Source of the DNA: Candidatus Nealsonbacteria bacterium
GTDB lineage: Bacteria; Patescibacteriota; Minisyncoccia; Minisyncoccales; JANBVM01
Direction: 5' to 3'
NCBI GenBank assembly: GCA_047456315.1
Contig: CP179889.1
Coordinates: 512,776 to 576,775, forward strand
Length of the DNA stretch: 64,000 bases
This document shows positions 1,369 through 46,724 of this stretch, in pieces (the stretch's first letter is position 1; every line of letters begins with the position of its first letter). The position numbers and the translations under genes were made by a program. The notes beneath the pieces are model-generated. The model saw only the letters and a program-made list of their open reading frames with translations. It had not been told where the DNA came from and ran no database searches.

Positions 1369-3090
1369 TTAACTATATTTTATCACTGGTTTGAAACTTT
1401 TCCTGTGAATCTTGCAGGGCCCTAATTCTGCTAAAGCAGATATGTGTTTTTTTGTGCAATAGCCCTTATGACTTCTAAACCCATATTGAGGGTATTTCTT
1501 ATGTTCTCTTCTCATTAATCTGTCCCGACTCACCTTTGCAATTATTGATGCGGAAGCGCAGGAAAAAACCTTATTATCACCCTTAATGATTGATTTTTGA
1601 TGAGTGTCTAAATTGAGTTTTATTCTTCCGTCTAAAATTAAAAAGTCAATTTTCTGATCAAACTTTTTTTCTAAATTTTTAACTGCGCGTTTCATAGCTA
1701 ATTTTGTGGCTTCTAAAACATTAATTCTATCTACAACTTTCTCTGAAGCTTTTCCAATCCCCCACTTTATACCAGAATGATTTGTCAGAACTTTATATAA
1801 CTTTTCTCTTTTTTTTGGTGTAAGTTTCTTGGAATCCCGAACACCTAAATGATTAAATAGCTTAATAGTTGAATTGTTATTGAGTCTGACAATTACTGCA
1901 GCAGCAAATACTGGACCGGACAGACTGTTGCCCGTGAAATAGCCCGTGCCATTTCGTCTCACATAAAAATTATGATATTTAGGAAGTTGCAGACAAAAAA
2001 CTTTTCCTTTATAAAATATATTTTTCTTGTGCAAGGATTTTATTTGAGCTTTATTATTTCTCCGTAACCGAATTTCAAAACAGGGAGCTTGATTTTCTTT
2101 TTTGATTATTCTACCCTCTATACACCCTCCTCTTGGCATTCTCACGCTTGTATGATATGTCCAACCTCTTTTTAATAAAACTTCTTCAAAATCATCTTTT
2201 AATTTCTTAGATACAGTATAATATACACAAACCTCTTTTCTATTTTTCCCAGTATAACAAGCCCCATCTCCCAATATTAACCATTTTATAAGAATATTAA
2301 GTAATCGCGGAGACAATTCTTTAATATCTCGAGGTACAAATTTAGTATAGCAGTTTCCAAGTTGCTTTAAGTATGTATAAAGCTGCTTATTATAACATTT
2401 AAATCCTGTTGCAAATTTACTAAATCTAAAAGGGAATTTTTTGAGCAAAGAATAAATTTTTTTATAGCTATCCTGAGACGCATTTTCGTCTTGAGAAATG
2501 GTTACCCTGTACGAACCCTTCTTCTTGTCGTGGTAAACAGAACCTTCTGATAAAAATATACCCAAAAAAGCAACCCATAATTTAATATCTATAAGTTTTT
2601 CCTCATTTTTATCCACCGTAGGTAATCTAAAAAATTTTGTATCTATTCCTCTCCATTTTCCTCCTCGAGGTATAAAATCATTACCAGACAAGTCACTTAC
2701 TATTTTTCTTTCTTCTCTTGCTTTATATCCAATCAATTTCAATCTATTATTGTCTTTTTTATCTCTCATGAAAACCCTTCTAAGAACAACGAAATAATGG
2801 TCAGGGGTAACAACTATATTTATTCCCCTATTTTTTAATTCTAAAAGATTTCCCTCAAAGTCTTTTTCTATAATTTTCTCTATTTTTTGCCACCTTATAT
2901 AACCATCATTAGTAAAAGATAAAACTTGGTCTTTCTTTAGATTAATATCAGTGTAGAACTTCCAACCATTACTGGTTAATACCTCTGCATCAGACCTTTC
3001 GCAACCACGACCTACTTCATCTATCCCAGCTACAATCTTATATCCCTTTTTCCACAATCTTTTTTCTTCTGAAAAGCTTGGATATTTCAT
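1369..3090 (-). CDS. rnhB: Ribonuclease HII interrupted by an in-frame intein (exteins 29 + 185 aa = 214 aa)
   Basis: N-extein ends GIDEVGRG. The C-extein resumes SLSGPVFAAAVIV...DSKKLT...DGRIKL...ASIIAKVSRD...GYCTKKH, a normal RNase HII once residues 30-388 are removed. Confidence 0.9.
   Translation of the reverse strand: MKYPSFSEEKRLWKKGYKIVAGIDEVGRGCERSDAEVLTSNGWKFYTDINLKKDQVLSFTNDGYIRWQKIEKIIEKDFEGNLLELKNRGINIVVTPDHYFVVLRRVFMRDKKDNNRLKLIGYKAREERKIVSDLSGNDFIPRGGKWRGIDTKFFRLPTVDKNEEKLIDIKLWVAFLGIFLSEGSVYHDKKKGSYRVTISQDENASQDSYKKIYSLLKKFPFRFSKFATGFKCYNKQLYTYLKQLGNCYTKFVPRDIKELSPRLLNILIKWLILGDGACYTGKNRKEVCVYYTVSKKLKDDFEEVLLKRGWTYHTSVRMPRGGCIEGRIIKKENQAPCFEIRLRRNNKAQIKSLHKKNIFYKGKVFCLQLPKYHNFYVRRNGTGYFTGNSLSGPVFAAAVIVRLNNNSTIKLFNHLGVRDSKKLTPKKREKLYKVLTNHSGIKWGIGKASEKVVDRINVLEATKLAMKRAVKNLEKKFDQKIDFLILDGRIKLNLDTHQKSIIKGDNKVFSCASASIIAKVSRDRLMRREHKKYPQYGFRSHKGYCTKKHISALAELGPCKIHRKSFKPVIKYS
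1927..3003 (-). mobile_element. Intein (359 aa) with LAGLIDADG homing-endonuclease domain inside rnhB
   Basis: Starts with Cys (TGC at 3003-3001) directly after DEVGRG. Block B is TPDH. LAGLIDADG-like motifs are FLGIFLSEGS and WLILGDGACY. Ends ...HNFYVRRNGTGYFTGN followed by Ser (+1, AGT at 1926-1924). The penultimate residue is Gly rather than His. Confidence 0.8.
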
Positions 3091-3155: not shown

Positions 3156-6100
3156 ATGTCCAAATTCACTCATCTACATGTCCATAGTCACTACTCTCTT
3201 TTAGATGGTTTGCCTAAAATTGATGATCTTTTGGATTATACAAAAAAACTAGGCATGGATTCTGTTGCCATAACTGATCATGGCGTGCTTTATGGTGCTG
3301 TTGAATTCTTCAAAAAAGCAAAAAAATATGAAGTTAAACCAATAATTGGATGTGAAGCATATGTTGCCTTTAAAGGCATGCACCAGAAAAGAGCTCATAT
3401 TGATAATAGAATATATCATTTAGTTCTTTTAGTTAAAAATGAGATTGGTTATAAAAATCTGGTGAAATTATTGACAAAAGCACACTTAGAAGGATTTTAT
3501 TACAAACCAAGAATTGATGATGAATTGCTGGCCCAATACTCTGAAGGATTAATTGGTCTCTCAGCCTGCTTAAAAGGAAAAATTCCTCAGCTGGTTTTAG
3601 AAAATAAAATTAAAGAAGCAAAAGAAACAGCCCTAAAATACAAGAAAATATTTGGCAATAACAACTTTTATTTGGAACTTCAACATCATCCGAATATAGA
3701 AAAGCAAAAAAAAGTAAATGAGGTTTTAATCTCTTTTTCAAAAGAATTAAAAATTCCTTTAGTAGCAACAAATGATACTCACTATCTAAGACCAGAAGAC
3801 GCCGAAGCCCAGGACACTTTAATGCTTATCAATACCGGCGCTGACCCCAATGACCCTGAGCGCTTAACTATAAAGGCTGATGATTTTTCACTGAAAAAAC
3901 CAGAACAAATGATAAAAGACTTTAAAGATGTTCCAGAAGCTATTGAAAATACCTTGAAAATAGCAGAGCAGTGCAATTTTGAATTTAAACTTGGTGAAAT
4001 TAAACTTCCCAAATTTCAAACACCAAATAATGAAACCCCTCCTCAATATTTAAAAGAACTTTGCAAAGAAGGATTAAAGAAAAAATATGGTCATTTAGTT
4101 AAAAAAGAGGTTACGGATAGATTAAATTATGAGCTGGATATGATAGAAAGAATGGGTTTCTCATCATACTTTTTAATTGTTGCTGATTTTGTAAACTGGG
4201 CAAAAGAAAAGAGAATTGTTGTTGGTCCTGGCAGAGGTTCTGTTGGCGGCTCTTTAGTAGCATATCTGTTAAGCATTACAAGTATTGATCCTTTAAAGTA
4301 TGATCTTCTTTTTGAGCGTTTCTTAAACCCTGCAAGAATTTCAATGCCAGATATTGATCTGGACTTTGCTGACAGAAGAAGAAACGAGGTTATTAGTTAT
4401 GTCACCGAGAAATATGGCAAAGACAAAGTTGCCCAGATCATCACTTTTGGAACAATGGCATCCCGGGCAGTGATAAGAGATGTTGGAAGAGCTCTTAGTT
4501 ATCCTTATGATTATTGTGATCGGATTGCAAAAATGATTCCTTTCGGACACAGCCTAGATGATACTCTGGCAAAAATCCCTGAATTCCGTCAATTATATGA
4601 AACAGATTCAAAAGCTGAAATTTTAATTAATTTAGCCAAGAAACTAGAAGGAGTTGCCCGCCATGCATCAACCCATGCCTGTGGAATAGTTATTTCAGAT
4701 AAACCCTTGGATAATATTGTTCCCTTGCAATACCCTACCCAGAATCATAGTGAAATTGTTACTCAGTATGAAATGCATGCTATTGAAGATTTAGGATTGT
4801 TGAAAATGGACTTTTTAGGATTAAAGAATTTAACAATTATTGAAGATACACTTTCCAGGATTTATGCAATACACAAGAAAAAAATTGATATTGAAAACCT
4901 TCCGTTAAATGACAGACGAACTTATAAGCTGCTTCAAAAAGGACAAACTATTGGTGTTTTTCAGTTAGAATCAGCAGGGTTTCAAAGATATTTAAAACAA
5001 TTAAAACCTGATGAGTTTGAAGACATTATTGCCATGGTAGCGCTTTACAGGCCTGGACCAATATCTTTAATTCCTGAATACATTGCTAGAAAACAAGGAA
5101 AAAGCAAAATTGAATATATTCATCCAAAATTAAAAGATATCCTTAAAAAAACTTATGGTTTGCCGGTTTATCAGGAAGATTTAATGTTTATTGCCCAAAA
5201 ACTAGCTGGATTTTCCATGTCTGAAGCAGATGTTTTAAGAAAAGCTATTGGGAAAAAGATTAAAAAACTATTACTGGAACAGAAACAAAAGCTTATTACA
5301 GGAATAAAGGAAAATGGAATAAAAGAAAGTGTTGCTAGAAAAATATGGGAATGGATTCTGCCTTTTGCTCGCTATGGTTTTAATCGCGCTCACTCAACTG
5401 CCTATGCTACTATTGCCTACCAAACAGCATATTTAAAAACACATTATCCAGTTGAATTTATGTCTGCTCTTTTAACCGCAGAAAAATCAGACGTAGAAAG
5501 AATTGGGTTTTTAATTGATGAGTGTAAAAAAATGGGGATTGAAGTGCTTGCTCCTAATATTAATGAAAGCTGGAGAAACTTCAGCGTTATTCCTCATAAA
5601 AAACAGATGCGCTTTGGTTTGTTTGCAATTAAAAACGTAGGTGAAGGTATTGTTAATACAATTATTGATGAAAGAAAAGAAAGAGGCCCATTTCAATCAA
5701 TTAATGATTTCATCTTAAGAATAAACTCAAAGGGTTTAAATAAAAAATCTTTGGAAAGCTTAATTAAAGCAGGAGCTTTTGATAAGTTTGAAGAAAGAAA
5801 TCAGCTTCTTTTTAATTTAGAAAGATTGTTGAGCTATAGCAGAGAAACACAGAGAATGAAATCAAATGGCCAGATTGGGCTTTTTGATGGAATCCAGACT
5901 TCAACTGAAATAAAACTTGAGACAACAGAGGCAGCAACTAAAAGTGAAAAATTGAGCTGGGAAAAAGAACTTTTAGGGCTTTTTGTCAGCGCTCATCCTC
6001 TAGATGATTACAGGAATATTTTAGAAAAAAAGACAACAAAAATTGCTCAACTAGCCAAATTCCCTACCAGAAGAACCATTAGAATTGGAGGTATAATTTC

Positions 6101-6323
6101 AAAAATTAAAAAAATTATTACTAAAAAAGGCAGGCCAATGCTCTTTATGAGTTTAGAAGATTTATCAGATAAAATTGAGGTTGTGGTATTTCCATCAATT
6201 ATTGAAAAAAAGCCAACTCTCTTTAAAGAAAATAAGATAGTATTTGTTTCAGGGAAAATCAGCAACAGGAGCACCACTCCAAAACTAATCTGTGAAGATA
6301 TTGAAGAGATTATTGAAGCTTAA
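3156..6323 (+). CDS. dnaE: DNA polymerase III alpha subunit
   Basis: 1055 aa; PHP domain start FTHLHVHSHYSLLDG, GSVGGSLVAYLLSIT, PDIDLDF, and an OB fold near the C-terminus. Confidence 0.95.
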   Translation: MSKFTHLHVHSHYSLLDGLPKIDDLLDYTKKLGMDSVAITDHGVLYGAVEFFKKAKKYEVKPIIGCEAYVAFKGMHQKRAHIDNRIYHLVLLVKNEIGYKNLVKLLTKAHLEGFYYKPRIDDELLAQYSEGLIGLSACLKGKIPQLVLENKIKEAKETALKYKKIFGNNNFYLELQHHPNIEKQKKVNEVLISFSKELKIPLVATNDTHYLRPEDAEAQDTLMLINTGADPNDPERLTIKADDFSLKKPEQMIKDFKDVPEAIENTLKIAEQCNFEFKLGEIKLPKFQTPNNETPPQYLKELCKEGLKKKYGHLVKKEVTDRLNYELDMIERMGFSSYFLIVADFVNWAKEKRIVVGPGRGSVGGSLVAYLLSITSIDPLKYDLLFERFLNPARISMPDIDLDFADRRRNEVISYVTEKYGKDKVAQIITFGTMASRAVIRDVGRALSYPYDYCDRIAKMIPFGHSLDDTLAKIPEFRQLYETDSKAEILINLAKKLEGVARHASTHACGIVISDKPLDNIVPLQYPTQNHSEIVTQYEMHAIEDLGLLKMDFLGLKNLTIIEDTLSRIYAIHKKKIDIENLPLNDRRTYKLLQKGQTIGVFQLESAGFQRYLKQLKPDEFEDIIAMVALYRPGPISLIPEYIARKQGKSKIEYIHPKLKDILKKTYGLPVYQEDLMFIAQKLAGFSMSEADVLRKAIGKKIKKLLLEQKQKLITGIKENGIKESVARKIWEWILPFARYGFNRAHSTAYATIAYQTAYLKTHYPVEFMSALLTAEKSDVERIGFLIDECKKMGIEVLAPNINESWRNFSVIPHKKQMRFGLFAIKNVGEGIVNTIIDERKERGPFQSINDFILRINSKGLNKKSLESLIKAGAFDKFEERNQLLFNLERLLSYSRETQRMKSNGQIGLFDGIQTSTEIKLETTEAATKSEKLSWEKELLGLFVSAHPLDDYRNILEKKTTKIAQLAKFPTRRTIRIGGIISKIKKIITKKGRPMLFMSLEDLSDKIEVVVFPSIIEKKPTLFKENKIVFVSGKISNRSTTPKLICEDIEEIIEA

Positions 6324-6326
6324 GTA

Positions 6327-6355
6327 TTGACAAAAGTTTTTGAAAATCTTAAATT
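6327..6355 (+). promoter_or_regulatory. Sigma70-like promoter (TTGACA-17-TAAATT) feeding the thrS leader
   Basis: TTGACA 6327-6332, TAAATT 6350-6355. The leader-ORF ATG sits 6 nt downstream. Confidence 0.55.
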
Positions 6356-6361
6356 AAAAAT

Positions 6362-6421
6362 ATGTTAAGGAATTTAAAACAACTTAACACTACAACTACA
6401 ACCTCTTTTCTAAAGGGCTAG
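6362..6421 (+). CDS. Putative thrS leader peptide MLRNLKQLNTTTTTSFLKG (19 aa)
   Basis: ATG at 6362, five consecutive Thr codons ACT ACA ACT ACA ACC at 6389-6403, TAG stop at 6419-6421. Lies between a promoter and a terminator immediately upstream of thrS. Too short for the ORF track. Confidence 0.55.
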   Translation: MLRNLKQLNTTTTTSFLKG

Positions 6422-6451
6422 GCCTTAAATTTTTTAATTAATTCAAGAACT

Positions 6452-6479
6452 AGCCTCTTAATAAAGAGGTTTTTGTTTT
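6452..6479 (+). terminator. Intrinsic terminator / attenuator hairpin in the thrS leader
   Basis: Stem AGCCTCTT (6452-6459) / AAGAGGTT (6464-6471), loop AATA, then a TTTTTGTTTT tract. The 5' arm can alternatively pair with GGCTAG at 6416-6421. Confidence 0.6.
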
Positions 6480-6528
6480 ATTAGTCGAAAAAATATATAA
6501 TTAAATAATTAATTAAATACTAATAATT

Positions 6529-8328
6529 ATGGCTAAAAAGAAAGAAATAGATAAAGAACTAGAGGCAATACGTCACAGCGCTGAGCATGTTTTAACCCAA
6601 GCAATGATAAAACTCTATCCAGGGCTTAAAATGGCAATGGGTCCCGCTATTGAATCTGGTTTTTATTTTGACTTTGATTATGACAAACAAATCAATGAAA
6701 AAGATTTTCCAAAGATTGAGAAGGAAATGCAAAAAATCATTAAAAAGGATCTACCTTTTAAAAAAGAAGTTTTAACGGTAAAAGAAGCCAGAAAACTTTT
6801 CAGAGGCAACCCTTACAAACAAGAATGGTTGGATGAAATAGAAAAAAAGAAAGAAAAGGCAGTAATCTACAGGACTGGAGATGAGTTTGTTGATCTATGC
6901 AGCGGCCCTCATGTTAAATCTACTGGCAAGATTGGCACCCTTAAGCTTTTATCTATTGCTGGCGCTTATTGGAGAGGAGATGAAAAAAATAAAATGTTAA
7001 CCAGAATTTACGGCACTGCTTTTAAGACAAAAAAGGGGTTGGCTAAATACCTTACAAATCTAGAAGAAGCTAAAAAAAGAGACCATAGAAAAATAGGAAA
7101 AGAAACTGAGCTGTTTTTAATTGATCCAATGGCAGGACTAGGCCTTGTAATGTGGCAACCTAAGGGAGCATTATTATGGAAAATAATAGAAGATTTCTGG
7201 CACAAAGAACATCTTAAATCAGGATATGAATTGGTTAGGGCTCCGCATATTGGCAATCGCAAATTATGGGAAACATCAGGCCATTGGGATTTTTATTCTG
7301 ACAGCATGTACCCACCTCTTGAAGTTGACAAAAGTTTAACCGAAGCAAAAAAAGGAAAGAAGTCAAAAACAAAAGAAGAATATCTGTTAAAACCAATGAA
7401 CTGCCCTTTTCATGTTCTAATCTATAACTCAAAAATCAGAAGCTATAAAGAACTGCCAATACGCTGGGCTGAATGCGGCACTGTTTATCGCTATGAGAAA
7501 TCAGGAGAATTATCCGGGCTTACAAGAGTTCGCGGCTTTACGATTGATGATGCTCATATTATCTGCACTAAAGACCAGGTTAAAGATGAACTTAAAAAAG
7601 TCATTGACTTCATAATCTATATATTTAAAGCCTTTGGATTCAAAAAAGAAAATATTCACGTTTATCTATCTTTAAGAGGAGCAAAAGACAAAAAAAACTA
7701 TATTGGTGATGATCAAGGATGGAAGTTTACACAAAAAGTACTGGAAGAAACCATAAAAGAAAAAGGGTTGGATTATGAAAAAGAAGAAGGTGAGGCAGCT
7801 TTTTATGGACCAAAGTTTGATTTTAAAATTAAAGACTCTGTTGGAAGATTATGGCAATGCTCAACTCTGCAATTTGATTTTAACCTGCCTGAAAGATTTA
7901 AAATGACTTTTATCAATAAAAACGGAAAAAAAGAACAACCATATATGCTTCATCGGGCGCTCTTTGGTTCTTTTGAAAGATTTATTGGACTTTTGATTGA
8001 ACATTACAAAGGCGCCTTCCCTTTATGGCTGGCTCCTGAACAAATGTGGGTAATCCCGGTTGGCAAACAGCATATTAAATATGCAAAAGATATTATAAAA
8101 GAACTTGCTGAAAATGATTTCAGGTGTCAGTTGAAAGAAGAAAATGAAAGTGTTTCCAAAAAGATAAGGAAAGGTGAGATTCAGAAAATCCCCTACTTAT
8201 TAGTTGTTGGAGATGAAGAAAAAAAAGAAAAGTCAGTAAGAGTTAGAGAAAAAGGAAAAGATTTGGGGAAAATTAAATTGACAAGGTTTATTGAGAAAGC
8301 GAAAATTAAAATAGATAAAAAAAGATAA
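6529..8328 (+). CDS. thrS: Threonyl-tRNA synthetase lacking the N-terminal TGS domain
   Basis: 599 aa; starts at the N2 editing domain (HSAEHVL, CSGPHV), then RDHRKIGKE, class II motifs and an anticodon-binding domain. Confidence 0.95.
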   Translation: MAKKKEIDKELEAIRHSAEHVLTQAMIKLYPGLKMAMGPAIESGFYFDFDYDKQINEKDFPKIEKEMQKIIKKDLPFKKEVLTVKEARKLFRGNPYKQEWLDEIEKKKEKAVIYRTGDEFVDLCSGPHVKSTGKIGTLKLLSIAGAYWRGDEKNKMLTRIYGTAFKTKKGLAKYLTNLEEAKKRDHRKIGKETELFLIDPMAGLGLVMWQPKGALLWKIIEDFWHKEHLKSGYELVRAPHIGNRKLWETSGHWDFYSDSMYPPLEVDKSLTEAKKGKKSKTKEEYLLKPMNCPFHVLIYNSKIRSYKELPIRWAECGTVYRYEKSGELSGLTRVRGFTIDDAHIICTKDQVKDELKKVIDFIIYIFKAFGFKKENIHVYLSLRGAKDKKNYIGDDQGWKFTQKVLEETIKEKGLDYEKEEGEAAFYGPKFDFKIKDSVGRLWQCSTLQFDFNLPERFKMTFINKNGKKEQPYMLHRALFGSFERFIGLLIEHYKGAFPLWLAPEQMWVIPVGKQHIKYAKDIIKELAENDFRCQLKEENESVSKKIRKGEIQKIPYLLVVGDEEKKEKSVRVREKGKDLGKIKLTRFIEKAKIKIDKKR

Positions 8329-8358
8329 TTAAATTAATATAATTATTATTTATAAAAT

Positions 8359-10344
8359 ATGATAAATAAAATTAAATTGTTTTTTACTTTAGCAATTTTA
8401 GGACTAATCTTAGGAAATGCTATTAATGCTCAAGAAACAGACCTCTCACCAGAAATCAGCGACATTAGCTGTAGCCTTGAAGAACCATGTGCCGAGGGAT
8501 TAGAATGTTTCAGTTTTCCAGAAATAGGTTTGAGATGCGCCCAATCTAATCCTTGTAGTTATTATGAGTGTCCTGAAGACACTCAATGTTTTGAAGCTGA
8601 AAGCTATCCTGTTCAAATTATCTGTTCACTATCAGATGGAGCTGAAAATCCAGAAGAAACAATAGTTTCTGCTGAGGCCCAGCAAGAAGTGGATTTAGAC
8701 GAAAACATTCAGCCAGCTGATCTGGAGATTAACCAACCCACAATATTACCTGACAGCCCATTTTACTTCTTCAAAAACATGGGAAGAGCAGTAAGAACCT
8801 TTTTCACCTTTGACCCAGTTAAAAAAGCAGAATTAAAAGAACAGTTCACAGGTGAAAAGTTAATGGAGCTTAAAAGAATGGTTGAAGAGAATAAAAATGC
8901 AAATGCAATCAGAAATGCTGCTCAAAACTATCAGGAGGAACTACAAGGACTGAAAACATTTGCAGAAAGAATAAGAACTACTGCACAGGAAAACGAACAA
9001 GTGGAAAATTTCTTAGACAAATACATTCAGCATAATATTCTTCATCAAAGAGTACTTCAAAAATTAGAAACTCAAGTGCCCGATGAAGTTTTTGAAAAAA
9101 TACAGCAGGTCAGAAACAATCACTTGGATAGATTCAACGATATAATGATTAAACTTGAAGACAAAAATAAAATCCCTGAGAGATTAGAAAAAAACCTAGA
9201 AGCAATAAAAGGAAGCGACTTTAAAGATTTTAAAAACTTAGAAATTCTCGATGACTTAAAAGAAAAGTTTCCTGAAGATATTAGAAATAGAATTGAAGAA
9301 CGAAAAGATAGCATTTTAAACAACTTACGAGAAAAGTTGGAAAACCTTCCAGAAGAACGCCGTGACATCTTAGAAGAATATATTGAAAAAATCAGTGGAG
9401 ATAAAATTAAACAGCTTGATATTTTAAACGCCTTAGAAGGAACAGAGCTCTCAGACAAATTAAATACTGTAATTAAAAGAGTAAAAGAAATCAGTGTCCA
9501 AAGAATAGAAAGCCAATACCAAAACATAGTAACAAAAGAAAAAGTAGAGCTCACAATAACCCAAGCTACAGATTTATTAGCAAAAGTAAAAAGCTTAATT
9601 GTAGAAAAAAACACTACAGCTGAAGAAATACCAGAGATCTTCAGATTAATTGAAGAAGCTGAAGAAAAATTAGAAGCAGCTAAAACAGAATTTGACCAAA
9701 AAAATTATGGCAGAGCTTATAGCCTGGCAATCTCTTCTTCATCCCTTTCAAAAAACGCTATAAGGATTATGGAAATAAGGGCTGGGTTTAAAGAAGATGA
9801 AACTAACCGAGGATTACTAATTTGCGCTGATATTGTTTCCCCTGTCTGTGCTAAGGATGGAAGAACTTATAAGAATATTTGTGAGGCAAAAAAAGCTGAA
9901 GCAGAGATTGTCTATAGAGGAGAATGTAAAACCAATTTAGTTTGCGCTCAGGAAGGTGAACAAATAAACAGAAACCCTCTTCTTGGTCCAGCTGAAAGAA
10001 GGTGTTGCGAAGGATTAGAAGAAATCAGGGTCAGCAGAACTTATAGTATTTGCAAGCAGCCTGGCGCCTCTTTTGAATGTAAAGTTGATAGTGACTGCCC
10101 TCTCCCTCGCTGTCTAACAACAACAGCCACAGCATCAAAATGTGTTGAAGGTAAATGCATACTCCCTGTTTGTTATAAACCAGAAATATGTATCCAGGTT
10201 ATTACTCCAGCTAGAAATTCTAAAACAGGTGAATGCAGAAACTTCCCCACTCCATGCGATGTTCCAGCAGGATGGGAGAGAACTGCAGCTTGTAAAATCC
10301 CGCAACTACTAAAAAGTCAAACTCAATTAAAAATTAGTCAATAA
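8359..10344 (+). CDS. Secreted Cys-rich protein: signal peptide, DUF5667-like segment, long coiled coil, Kazal-like module, Cys-rich C-terminus
   Basis: Signal peptide MINKIKLFFTLAILGLILGNAINAQE. LPDSPFYFFKNMGRAVRTFFTF resembles DUF5667. CADIVSPVCAKDGRTYKNICEAKKAEAEIVYRGEC (9823-9927) matches the Kazal pattern C-x-PVC-x-DG-x-TY-x-N-x-C. Confidence 0.7.
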   Translation: MINKIKLFFTLAILGLILGNAINAQETDLSPEISDISCSLEEPCAEGLECFSFPEIGLRCAQSNPCSYYECPEDTQCFEAESYPVQIICSLSDGAENPEETIVSAEAQQEVDLDENIQPADLEINQPTILPDSPFYFFKNMGRAVRTFFTFDPVKKAELKEQFTGEKLMELKRMVEENKNANAIRNAAQNYQEELQGLKTFAERIRTTAQENEQVENFLDKYIQHNILHQRVLQKLETQVPDEVFEKIQQVRNNHLDRFNDIMIKLEDKNKIPERLEKNLEAIKGSDFKDFKNLEILDDLKEKFPEDIRNRIEERKDSILNNLREKLENLPEERRDILEEYIEKISGDKIKQLDILNALEGTELSDKLNTVIKRVKEISVQRIESQYQNIVTKEKVELTITQATDLLAKVKSLIVEKNTTAEEIPEIFRLIEEAEEKLEAAKTEFDQKNYGRAYSLAISSSSLSKNAIRIMEIRAGFKEDETNRGLLICADIVSPVCAKDGRTYKNICEAKKAEAEIVYRGECKTNLVCAQEGEQINRNPLLGPAERRCCEGLEEIRVSRTYSICKQPGASFECKVDSDCPLPRCLTTTATASKCVEGKCILPVCYKPEICIQVITPARNSKTGECRNFPTPCDVPAGWERTAACKIPQLLKSQTQLKISQ

Positions 10345-39302: not shown

Positions 39303-40577
39303 ATGGAAAAAAGGGTCAGAAGAGTTTTGTTTGTCATATTTTTTTTGATTTTTATTATAGTTGCGCCGATATTAATCCTTTATGTGCAGGGATACAGGTT
39401 TGATTTTGAAAACAAAAAATTAACCCAAACAGGCGGTCTTTTTATTAAAACAACAGCTCCAAAACAAGCAGAGATTTATTTAGATGAAGAATTAATCAGA
39501 AAAACAGATTTCTTTTTTAGCTCTGCTTTAATTGAGAATCTTTTACCTAAAACATATAACATTAAGGTTCAAAAACAAGATTATTATGCTTGGGAAAAGA
39601 ATCTAGAAGTAAAAGAAAAACAGGTTGTTGAGGCCAGAAGTATTGTTCTTCTGCCAAAAGATCCAGAGTTTGAACTTTTAGCAACTGAAGTTGAAAATAT
39701 CTGGTTTTCAGAAGATAAAACCAAAGCAATAATAAAAGAAACTGATAACAATATCTGGACTCTTAAATTATATAATCTGGAAAAAAACGTAAGAAGCCAG
39801 CTAATAAAAGAAACCGATATTTATAAAACTGGGGCTGATTTAATTGATTTGCATTTCACTAATAATGATAATCTTATGCTTCAGGTTGGAAGCAAAGAAC
39901 AAGTAAGTTATTTTGAGCTTGAAATTGACAGTATTCCTCCGCTTCTAACAAAAGCAAAAGCACCCCAGCCCCTTATTGAAGATGCCCTGGCTTATGAGTC
40001 ATTAAATGGAGCTATTTATTACCTTGATTCTTTAGGAGACCTTTACAAAACTAATGCTTCTTTGACAAGCAATGAAAAAATAACCAGCCAAGCTTTCAAT
40101 ATAAGCCAGGAAACCGAATACAAGCTATACATATTTGAAAAAGCTGTTTTTATCCAAGAAGGAAAAACAATCCATCTTTTAAACCAGGAAAAGAAAATAT
40201 TTGAACAGTTTTCTGAAAATATTAAATCTCTAAAGATTTCTCCTGACAAACGAAAGGTGGTATATTTTTCTGATTCAGAAATAAAAATACTGTTTTTAGA
40301 AGAACAAAACTTTCAGCCAAGATTCAGCAAGGGAGAAAATATGTTTTTAATACGCTTATCTGAACCAATAAACGATATTTTTTGGCTGAATTCTGATTAT
40401 TTAATCCTCATAACCAACAACGTATTAAAGATTATTGAAATTGATAACAGAGACAGGGTGAACATTATTGAGATAGTAACAGTCAAAAACCCTGAAATCT
40501 TTTTAAACCGCAAAACAAAAAAATTCTATCTATTGGATAGAGGAAATTTTTTTGTTTCTGAAAAAATAATTATTTAA
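39303..40577 (+). CDS. Membrane-anchored PEGA-domain protein with beta-rich C-terminal region
   Basis: 424 aa; TM helix VLFVIFFLIFIIVAPILILYV. PEGA-like GGLFIKTTAPKQAEIYLDEE...YNIKVQKQDYYAWEKNLEV. Confidence 0.65.
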   Translation: MEKRVRRVLFVIFFLIFIIVAPILILYVQGYRFDFENKKLTQTGGLFIKTTAPKQAEIYLDEELIRKTDFFFSSALIENLLPKTYNIKVQKQDYYAWEKNLEVKEKQVVEARSIVLLPKDPEFELLATEVENIWFSEDKTKAIIKETDNNIWTLKLYNLEKNVRSQLIKETDIYKTGADLIDLHFTNNDNLMLQVGSKEQVSYFELEIDSIPPLLTKAKAPQPLIEDALAYESLNGAIYYLDSLGDLYKTNASLTSNEKITSQAFNISQETEYKLYIFEKAVFIQEGKTIHLLNQEKKIFEQFSENIKSLKISPDKRKVVYFSDSEIKILFLEEQNFQPRFSKGENMFLIRLSEPINDIFWLNSDYLILITNNVLKIIEIDNRDRVNIIEIVTVKNPEIFLNRKTKKFYLLDRGNFFVSEKIII

Positions 40578-45422: not shown

Positions 45423-46724
45423 TTAGATCGAGTTATCTATGAAACTGTAATTAATATTGATTTTTTCAATATCTTTAGGCGCATTTTTAACCCAAAAAGG
45501 CCAGAATTCAACTTTTGCCTTTTCAATTTCTGGCTGGTTCTCTAAAAATACAGTTGTTCCAGCCAGAGACTTTCCCATTAGCTCTCTTTTAAGAAGCTTT
45601 AAGTTAATATCAGAATAAACTTCAACTGATATCTTTAAAATAACTACTGCTTTTTCAGTATCAAAATTAATGGTCTGAGGTGTGTAATCTATCTTCAAGC
45701 TCTCTTTATAAAGTGTTTTGTTATCAATATCCTGAAAAGAAACAAGCTGTCTTACATACTCTTCAATATCTTTTTTCTCAAATAAGAAGGTTTTGGACTT
45801 GGCTTTTACTTTGAAACTAAAGGTTTCTGCTTCATCACCTGCTTTAGTTAAAGAAAATTTTTCCAGAACTTCTGTTTCTAGAATATCATCTAAAAAGATT
45901 TGGTTGTCTGGAATTTTACTTCTCAAGTCATTCTCAGAAGCACTCTTGGTCTTTTTAATTAAAGATTCCTCTGCCAACTCTAAATCTTGCTCCGTAACCT
46001 GTAAAGAATCCCCTCCTCCTGTCATTGGTTTTAAAGATTCTCCATAAAACTTAGTGTATCTTGGCGTGCCCCTGAAAACATATATTGAGAAATGAGTTGG
46101 TTCTATATTATAATCTTCTCCTGACTCAGCAGCAATTACATCAACATCAACATATCTAGCAATAAGCTTTCCATTTTTAAGCTCAGCTCCTGGCACAATT
46201 ATCTTATCCTTTGACTTAAATAATTTGCCTTCTGATGACACAAACCTGGTTCCTTTAAGCCAGGTTTCAGATTTAGTAGAATATTCATTATAAAGACGTA
46301 TTGTTCCTTCTGCTTTTTTTAAGGTTGTTCCTGTTGAATCAAATTCCTCATAAAGAACTTTCTGGGTTTCAAACACAGAGGCAGGAATAACCCTATAAGT
46401 TAAATCAACTTCATCAGCTTTTGTATCAATTGTCAGTTCAGTTTCAAAACTAAGTAATTCTGTTTTAGGCCAGATTACAATTTCAGCTTTTGATATCTGA
46501 AAAGCAACAAAAACAAACGAAGCTAAAAGAACAGGAATAATAACCCAGCCCACCCTAAAGCCCTTCTTTTTAATCTCTTCACCAGCAGCTATGGCTTGAG
46601 CTTTTTTCTTTATCTTTTCAATAGCTTCTTTCTCAAAAATCTTTTCCTTAAAGGTTGTAACAGTTGGCTTTTTATCCTTCTCTATCTTTTCTGGAGGTAT
46701 AATATCAAATATCTTTTTAGTCAT
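45423..46724 (-). CDS. Hypothetical membrane-anchored protein (weak baseplate-J-like resemblance in the central region)
   Basis: 433 aa; TM helix GWVIIPVLLASFVFVAFQI. The central segment GTRFVSSEGKLFKS..IIVPG...VDVDVIAAESGEDYNI loosely recalls baseplate J/gp47-like repeats. Resemblance not verified. Confidence 0.55.
   Translation of the reverse strand: MTKKIFDIIPPEKIEKDKKPTVTTFKEKIFEKEAIEKIKKKAQAIAAGEEIKKKGFRVGWVIIPVLLASFVFVAFQISKAEIVIWPKTELLSFETELTIDTKADEVDLTYRVIPASVFETQKVLYEEFDSTGTTLKKAEGTIRLYNEYSTKSETWLKGTRFVSSEGKLFKSKDKIIVPGAELKNGKLIARYVDVDVIAAESGEDYNIEPTHFSIYVFRGTPRYTKFYGESLKPMTGGGDSLQVTEQDLELAEESLIKKTKSASENDLRSKIPDNQIFLDDILETEVLEKFSLTKAGDEAETFSFKVKAKSKTFLFEKKDIEEYVRQLVSFQDIDNKTLYKESLKIDYTPQTINFDTEKAVVILKISVEVYSDINLKLLKRELMGKSLAGTTVFLENQPEIEKAKVEFWPFWVKNAPKDIEKININYSFIDNSI

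Follow-up and report, generated by a model that had tools for sequence, protein, structure and literature searches.

In Escherichia coli, the pheM leader peptide controls pheST, an operon for an aminoacyl-transfer RNA (tRNA) synthetase, by attenuation. A leader with a comparable design is thrL of Enterobacteria, which mixes Thr and Ile codons. Attenuation has also been predicted for leuS and trpS in Streptomyces, with pheM-pheST cited as precedent (PMC1262725). In S. lividans, the leaderless leader open reading frames (ORFs) alaL, thrL, leuL2 and trpL2 have been described, thrL being located upstream of thrS, the gene for threonine--tRNA ligase; this thrL, MKRVRPFLETTPGFVPAR, has two Thr codons and one hairpin, has no U-tract, and its termination was called 'not clear' (PMC8079986). 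Gene regulation in Patescibacteria, the candidate phyla radiation (CPR), is almost unstudied, as these are uncultured episymbionts with tiny genomes. Here we analyse a 64,000-nucleotide stretch from a Candidatus Nealsonbacteria bacterium (contig CP179889.1, positions 512,776 to 576,775; "the window") that carries a short leader element between dnaE and thrS.

A first-pass annotation made from the letters of the window had proposed that a leaderless leader peptide with Thr codons, a terminator and an antiterminator control read-through into thrS. This proposal gains support from 21 sequences and from covariation, and, judged by sequence comparison, the element is real, conserved and cis-regulatory, well above chance. 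We consider it likely that it works as a ribosome-mediated leader-peptide attenuator, sensing charged tRNA-Thr and governing the read-through of transcription from an upstream promoter, P1, into thrS. The elements, their conservation, the codon-type conservation of the Thr run, the covariation of three pairings (A:D, B:C and C:D, below) and the thermodynamics of three states were computed here.

The threonine-codon leader and its relatives

Direct reading of positions 6100-6700 bore out all element coordinates of the first-pass annotation; every feature lies on the forward strand. The upstream gene, dnaE (DNA polymerase III alpha, 3156-6323 in the ORF list), ends with a stop codon at 6321-6323. 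P1, read directly and scored 10/12 by a consensus scan, consists of a -35 box TTGACA (6327-6332) and, after a 17-nucleotide (nt) spacer, a -10 box TAAATT (6350-6355) that ends 6 nt before an ATG at 6362. This ATG opens the 19-codon leader ORF 'thrL', MLRNLKQLNTTTTTSFLKG* (6362-6421), with homologous Thr-run ORFs in relatives, and its putative regulatory codons are five consecutive Thr codons, ACT ACA ACT ACA ACC, at 6389-6403. Arm A, AACCTCTTTT (6400-6409), shares bases with the final Thr codon and with the Ser and Phe codons that follow, and has arm D as its partner. Arm B, AGGGCTAG (6414-6421), contains the leader stop and forms an antiterminator with the 5' part of arm C, CTAGCCTCTT (6450-6459); both assignments come from folding and covariation, and direct reading finds GGCTAG (6416-6421) complementary to CTAGCC (6450-6455). 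Arm C can pair alternatively with B (antiterminator) or with D (terminator), and arm D, AAAGAGGTT (6463-6471), is the 3' arm in both terminating hairpins, C:D and A:D. The terminator stem, AGCCTCTT (6452-6459) and AAGAGGTT (6464-6471) with the loop AATA, was found by a pattern scan and, like its U-tract, TTTTTGTTTT (6470-6479), is kept in all members of the family described below. A second putative promoter, P2 (TTGTTT-17-TATAAT, 6473-6501), has a -35 box that overlaps the U-tract, and stands between the hairpins and the ATG of thrS, which lies 57 nt beyond the end of the hairpins. The regulated gene, thrS (6529-8328), encodes a ligase (ThrRS) of 599 amino acids with the Pfam domains tRNA_SAD, tRNA-synt_2b and HGTP_anticodon and no N-terminal TGS domain, 100% identical to the threonine--tRNA ligase of a Candidatus Nealsonbacteria metagenome-assembled genome (MAG).

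The codon run at 6389-6403 is the sole run of at least four ACN codons in all six frames of the whole 64 kb window. To place this in a wider setting, short ATG-started ORFs were counted in 250-nt regions upstream of thrS and in other 250-nt windows of the same loci as controls. ORFs with at least four Thr in six residues were present in 13 of 134 distinct thrS-upstream regions and in 3 of 3180 control windows, a roughly 100-fold difference, and the control windows were dominated by K, L and S runs, as expected in AT-rich DNA. Short sense-strand ORFs with Leu runs were seen in 9 of the 134 regions; these are probably T-box leaders of the Bacillus cereus group, near-identical and counted repeatedly.

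Genome and metagenome collections supplied loci of ThrRS relatives, and others were obtained through exact look-up of proteins. A Thr-run ORF followed by a hairpin and U-tract upstream of thrS was found in 21 distinct sequences: the window, L161, L164, L166, L081, L098, L001, L002, L084, L009, L110, L091, L087 and L097, together with L093, L150, L088, L089, L023, L016 and L111. The relatives thus hold what the first-pass annotation would predict of them, a conserved Thr-run ORF with covarying hairpins before thrS (21 sequences, 15 of them in the covariation analysis). Those that are named belong to Nealsonbacteria or to the 'Patescibacteria group'; their ThrRS is from 87% down to about 45% identical to that of the window, and the neighbouring DnaE C-terminus is 93% to 50% identical across members. 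The distance from leader stop to thrS start is about 95-120 nt in most members and 30-147 nt in a few, and the element is farther upstream of thrS in L016 and L111 than in the others. In L111 (1920-2043), the Thr leader MKNIMQKTTTTTTQRQLGGGVVV* has a trp-like 1:2/2:3/3:4 layout and is followed by an ORF of about 130 codons and then by thrS; this organism has clear Shine-Dalgarno sites (AAAGGAGG) and may not belong to the CPR, so the association of Thr leader and thrS may extend beyond Patescibacteria. One further candidate, L005 (2864-2980), was rejected as a member, its ORF starting MTTTT but running for 38 codons, being hydrophobic, ending at the thrS start and having no terminator.

The -35 box TTGACA is invariant in 14 of 14 tabulated members of group 1 and is also present in the group-2 members L023, L088 and L089. 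P1 is called a promoter because its hexamers are conserved in relatives and not because such hexamers are enriched, as the AT-rich region holds 7 promoter-like hexamers where 10.4 are expected. The end of the -10 box and the leader start codon lie 6-11 nt apart in the 14 tabulated members, and the leader transcript would therefore be leaderless or nearly so. Of the 68 genes predicted in the window, only 8 are preceded by a Shine-Dalgarno-like motif, and TATAAT stands 6-8 nt ahead of the ATG of several ordinary genes (for example 1369-3090, 39303-40577 and 45423-46724), which suggests that leaderless messenger RNAs are common in the source genome.

The pattern of conservation within the leader ORF points to translation. 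In the covariance-model alignment, the Thr-run columns upstream of arm A have a period of 3 nt, with 1.15-2.0 bits at codon positions 1 and 2 (A and C) and 0.35-0.82 bits at position 3. Fixed A and C with a free third base reflect selection on codon identity, not on RNA pairing. The ORFs are 13-23 codons long with 3-9 Thr codons per run, and the peptides are alike only in that run and, often, in a following Ser-Phe; their N-terminal halves are wholly different (MLRNLKQLNTTTTTSFLKG, MNFNNSTTTSTTTSF, MKAPTLTNAITTTTTS, MLSSVTTTTTTTTTSF, MKQNKTLTTDTTITSF, MLITYKKITIITTTKNPF, MKLFVLITTTTTTQI, MNLSVLITTTATIPISWR). The in-frame leader stop is placed at or within arm B in nearly all members.

Alternative pairings and the position of the ribosome

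The unconstrained fold of 6356-6485 is one long hairpin (-34.2 kcal/mol, z -5.4) in which 6400-6408 pair with 6463-6471 (A:D) and 6415-6421 with 6450-6456 (B:C). The nested long hairpin itself, 6398-6472, has -27.9 kcal/mol (z -5.2), the B:C antiterminator (6411-6460) -15.4 kcal/mol (z -2.9) and the C:D terminator -8.8 kcal/mol (z -4.4). B:C and C:D are mutually exclusive, as the CCUC of the terminator 5' arm is common to both, and the nested fold is the minimum-energy structure in 12 of 12 group-1 members. These results recast the topology that had been proposed, which was the 1:2, 2:3 and 3:4 arrangement of trp-type attenuators. Pairings 2:3 (B:C) and 3:4 (C:D) both covary, including the antiterminator that uses the terminator 5' arm, and they stand; the 1:2 pairing that had been cast as an anti-antiterminator (6403-6408 with 6412-6417) has -2.3 kcal/mol and z 0.09, the level of shuffled sequences, and its place is taken by A:D, that is 1:4. 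Leader-peptide attenuators can do without a 1:2 pairing, which is a trait of the trp-type topology. A ground state of 1:2 plus 3:4 was accordingly rejected, the unconstrained fold being a single nested hairpin and 1:2 lacking covariation. The 9-nt complement that had been remarked on in passing, AACCTCTTT at 6400-6408 with 6463-6471, turns out to be this conserved pairing of regions 1 and 4.

Pair counts were made on a MAFFT alignment of 15 members (A5) that was not fitted to any structure and that leaves L087 and L150 slightly misregistered, which makes the counts conservative. On A5, A:D and B:C together are 92.5% paired with 6 of 18 pairs double-changed, a level reached by none of 500 shuffles (slid controls 36-75%). 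C:D is 91.7% paired with 3 of 8 pairs double-changed, reached by 8 of 500 shuffles (slid controls 37-73%). For 1:2 the figures are 88.3%, 1 of 4 pairs and 392 of 500 shuffles, which is no signal (slid controls 36-68%). Other alignments define the range. The first MAFFT alignment (A1) had L087, L091 and L093 one column out of register, which was corrected in the covariance-model alignment (A3); A3 also held reverse-strand and noise rows, and pairs were counted by script on selected rows, giving 92.9% paired and 5 of 10 pairs double-changed for A:D, and 96.9% and 5 of 8 for B:C. Taking both alignments together, 93-97% of the B:C cells are paired, and 3-5 of its 8 pairs show compensation. The 11 closest sequences (A2) varied too little for a covariation signal, and distant members were added for A5.

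Among individual compensations, the pair CCTCTTTT/AAAAGAGG becomes CCCCTTTT/AAAAGGGG in L087 and L097, CTCCTAA/TTAGGAG in L016 and ACCAGC/GCTGGT in L093, and GAGGCTAG/CTAGCCTC becomes GAGGCTAA/TTAGCCTC in L001, GAGGTTAG/CTGACCTC in L087 and GGGGCTT/AAGCCCC in L091. Arm D of L087 and L097 is a perfect match to A, yet its match to C depends on a G-U pair, which suggests that A:D is selected in its own right.

The effect of a ribosome on these pairings was modelled by folding the leader up to arm D with the bases under the ribosome barred from pairing, a stretch that began at the 5' end and stopped 13 nt from the first base of the A-site codon. The calculation assumes equilibrium, whereas attenuation in the cell is a kinetic process. 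For naked RNA of the 12 group-1 members, D has a pairing probability of 0.94-1.0. With a late Thr codon of the run in the A site it falls to the low of each sequence, 0.00-0.18 in the group-1 members for which values were printed, and only B:C is left. With the stop codon in the A site it returns to 0.82-1.0, as the short C:D terminator. In L093, which has three Thr codons, the low is about 0.4-0.5, and in L016, of intermediate layout, the switch is weak. The suggestion that a stalled ribosome frees region 2 is thus borne out by the model for the 12 group-1 members and fails at equilibrium for the three members of group 2. For the group-1 members, the model thus predicts read-through solely while a ribosome occupies the Thr codons. 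On this modelling we judge a three-state design to be the likely one, with 1:4 and 2:3 as a long hairpin, 3:4 as a short terminator, or 2:3 alone.

P2, which had been named as a possible alternative start, is conserved and probably a real basal promoter of thrS. Its heptamer ATATAAT is invariant in nine close relatives with variable flanks, and in distant members the corresponding position holds extended -10-like boxes (TGTTAAAAT, TGTTAATAT, TGTATAAT). The attenuator would then add P1 read-through to thrS transcription rather than gate all of it.

The following mechanism is proposed, in which the transcription start, leader translation, termination and the response to threonine are steps that we infer from sequence. 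P1 would start transcription at the leader ATG or a few bases from it, and the leader would be translated without a Shine-Dalgarno sequence, as apparently are most genes of the source genome. With no ribosome on the leader (state 1), A:D and B:C would form the long hairpin flush with the U-tract, and transcription would terminate. When Thr-tRNA is plentiful (state 2), a ribosome at the stop codon would cover B, and the short C:D hairpin would terminate transcription as well. When Thr-tRNA is scarce (state 3), a ribosome would stall while its A site holds any of the three final Thr codons, covering A and exposing B; B:C would form, D would be left without a partner, and with no hairpin at the U-tract polymerase would read through into thrS. 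Low charged tRNA-Thr would thereby raise thrS transcription and, because ThrRS makes Thr-tRNA, the feedback would be homeostatic, as it is for pheM-pheST of E. coli. P2 would supply basal expression, with P1 read-through added on demand.

Several observations weigh against this reading. For the leader in the window, D keeps a pairing probability of 0.18 in the stalled state and of 0.27 and 0.42 at neighbouring codons. In group 2 (L088, L089, L023) the terminator is formed in all masked states and there is no equilibrium switch; the terminator is much stronger in these members, the layout is trp-like, the Thr codons ACCACC pair with a G-run, and the same G-run can pair with the terminator CCUCCC, so that regulation there would have to be kinetic. 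The leader of L098 starts with ATA, not ATG (2328-2330), in an otherwise intact element. The copy may be decaying, initiation may occur at a non-AUG codon, or the assembly may be wrong; for that locus, constitutive termination of transcripts from P1 is the prediction of the model. The covariation sample is small and its members are related, and relatedness alone can exceed shuffle controls. Because a conserved P2 follows the terminator, thrS can probably be expressed without P1 read-through. Finally, an attenuator has ribosome-polymerase coupling as its premise, and for Patescibacteria we infer this coupling.

Other readings of the conserved unit

It is unlikely, in our view, that the stretch from P1 through the short ORF to the terminator is a gene in its own right, for a Thr-rich micropeptide or a trans-acting small RNA (sRNA) of about 115 nt, with thrS transcribed from P2 only. 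The unit does have its own promoter and terminator, the conserved -10 box of P2 lies between that terminator and thrS, and trans-acting sRNAs derived from attenuators are known (rnTrpL, PMC6614838). A micropeptide gene is hard to reconcile with conservation that is confined to the Thr run and the RNA arms and spares the rest of the peptide. Nor does the unit move independently of thrS. It is found solely next to this gene, in at least three upstream contexts: dnaE in most group-1 members (13 member loci by tblastn with the DnaE C-terminus, the syntenic gene having Pfam DNA_pol3_alpha and related domains), tRNA-Val(GAC) in L023, L088 and L089, and other contexts in L016, L093 and L111. There are also junctions where thrS directly follows dnaE and no element lies between them, in L168 (44-nt gap) and L082 (longer gap). 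These varied contexts and empty junctions link the element to thrS and argue that its hairpin is not just a dnaE terminator. A free-standing gene would also have no need of the geometry by which, in the 12 modelled group-1 members, a stalled ribosome covers A and frees D. The attenuator could have a trans role in addition to its cis role.

Sensing by the leader RNA without translation, whether by uncharged tRNA-Thr on the ACN repeats or by ThrRS on a hairpin that switches the terminator, is in our estimate very unlikely, although related genomes lend it a precedent. Matches to the T-box family RF00230 lie directly upstream of thrS in L085, L015, L007, L094, L004 and L025 (34-52 bits, E 1.5e-8 to 8e-4); of the nine related loci searched, none reached the Rfam gathering score of 93 bits and these six were sub-threshold but significant, while L116, L165 and L167 have only the motif GTGGAACC, seen by eye. 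Patescibacteria T-boxes may be systematically missed by standard annotation. T-box-like leaders at the same position in sister lineages imply that tRNA-Thr-dependent control of thrS has been selected for in this group, and by sequence the charging signal of tRNA-Thr is read by two unrelated devices in related lineages. Autoregulation by ThrRS at an mRNA operator is, in addition, established in E. coli, and PMC6524683 mentions it. Against both forms of untranslated sensing, an Rfam cmscan of 5800-7000 with E up to 10 gave only chance-level microRNA and sRNA matches, and neither Thr_leader (RF00506) nor T-box. The spacing between -10 box and start codon is fixed, the Thr run continues the frame of that codon, and in nearly all members the in-frame stop falls at arm B or inside it; a single specifier would not resemble a run of 3-9 Thr codons whose third bases are free. 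Members differ in their hairpin loops (AAUA and the apical loop), which hold no anticodon-like motif, and hairpins at least 57 nt from the thrS start, with P2 between, could not occlude ribosome binding.

We also regard as highly improbable that a translated leader acts by another route, for instance through Rho-dependent polarity, through the stability of the mRNA or through read-through from P1 that interferes with transcription from P2. P2 does overlap the terminator U-tract and could be occluded by polymerase arriving from P1, and the lack of an equilibrium switch in group 2 would fit such a route. The intrinsic terminator is canonical, however, and a hairpin switch would be expected to give both the covarying, mutually exclusive B:C and C:D pairings and the outcome of the masking. 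It is hardly credible that dnaE simply has this hairpin and U-tract as its terminator, that an ordinary promoter of thrS comes next, and that the hexamers and the Thr ORF arose by chance in AT-rich DNA: a terminator 130 nt after dnaE, hexamers that are not enriched and the presence of P2 would all agree with this, but the Thr ORF, TTGACA and arms A-D persist to about 50% DnaE and 45-54% ThrRS identity while the unconstrained spacer has fully diverged (identities that exclude near-identical strains as an explanation), and it leaves unexplained the Thr-run enrichment over control windows, the elements that follow tRNA-Val and the dnaE-thrS junctions that lack one.

The surroundings of the attenuator candidate were also recorded. 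A protein of about 600-660 amino acids with a DUF5667 domain is encoded downstream of thrS (window 8359-10344), and the order dnaE, thrS, DUF5667 gene is kept in the window and in L162, L163, L164, L166 and L168. Compared with window 5330-9528, L163 (CP179890.1, Nealsonbacteria) is 97% identical over the end of dnaE, the whole leader and the first third of thrS; about 340 nt within thrS (window 7107-7450) are unaligned, the remainder is 87% identical and ThrRS is 72% identical overall, so that the L163 thrS looks like a recombination mosaic. Over the whole window, Rfam at gathering thresholds found two tRNAs only. Three long stretches of 500-800 nt in this very compact genome (29549-30144, 44920-45422 and 46725-47523) are free of ORFs of at least 90 codons, and none of them has an Rfam match at those thresholds.

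Significance and comparison with known systems

On balance, we think it probable that the element represents an undescribed RNA family and the first ribosome-mediated attenuator recognised in Patescibacteria, three-state, nested and leaderless, that in one clade takes the place held by a T-box in sister lineages. The first-pass annotation had stated that it knew of no Thr leader-peptide attenuator described for thrS and of no attenuator described in the CPR. The first point has to yield to the annotation of thrL before thrS in S. lividans, on weak evidence; the second agrees with our literature search, which found nothing that links CPR or Patescibacteria to attenuation, T-boxes or riboswitches. 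For a thrS leader peptide, that S. lividans annotation was the only literature found, and earlier predictions in other phyla are possible (the survey of Lopatovskaya et al. 2010 was not covered). The class of leader-peptide attenuators is itself known and no new principle is involved; what would set this member apart is translation of a leaderless transcript, a default terminator that is nested, and a basal promoter further downstream.

If the attenuator is real, translation and transcription are coupled tightly enough to permit attenuation in bacteria that are ultra-small and mostly lack Shine-Dalgarno sequences, and a conserved leader-peptide attenuator would be sequence-level evidence both for leaderless initiation and for coupling of ribosome and RNA polymerase. 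Two unrelated RNA devices, T-box and leader peptide, would have been interchanged at one gene for the same signal, and thrS would join, with strong comparative support, the short list of synthetase genes under classical attenuation. The element would also be a compact natural sensor of tRNA-Thr charging. At about 115 nt and with clear predictions, it is easily tested in coupled in vitro systems or with heterologous reporters, and as a covariance model it could be used in the annotation of MAGs.

Each of the known systems shares part of this design. The T-box of Firmicutes, which occurs in reduced form in Patescibacteria relatives, has the same gene, signal, terminator/antiterminator output and, in sister lineages, genomic position, but it binds uncharged tRNA directly and needs no translation, whereas the element here has a Thr-codon ORF and neither T-box sequence nor specifier fold. 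The thrS operator of E. coli likewise exerts feedback control through the thrS 5' region. That operator overlaps the ribosome binding site, mimics the anticodon arm of tRNA-Thr and acts by translational autorepression; the hairpins described here are at least 57 nt from the start codon, have non-conserved loops and abut a U-tract. The thrL leader of Enterobacteria (Thr_leader) also uses runs of Thr codons to govern a terminator/antiterminator switch, yet it controls biosynthesis (thrABC) and not the synthetase, and the present element falls outside its family. The thrL of S. lividans is, likewise, a leaderless short ORF before thrS, from Actinobacteria, with no sequence similarity and without comparative or covariation support. 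The closest functional analogue is pheM-pheST of E. coli, where a leader ORF with cognate codons, alternative hairpins and an intrinsic terminator also provide self-regulation through charged tRNA. It differs in using Phe, in belonging to another phylum with no sequence relationship, and in having a leader with a normal ribosome binding site; the thrS leader of the window, for its part, would have as its default a nested 1:4 plus 2:3 hairpin in place of 1:2 plus 3:4, and has a promoter after the terminator.

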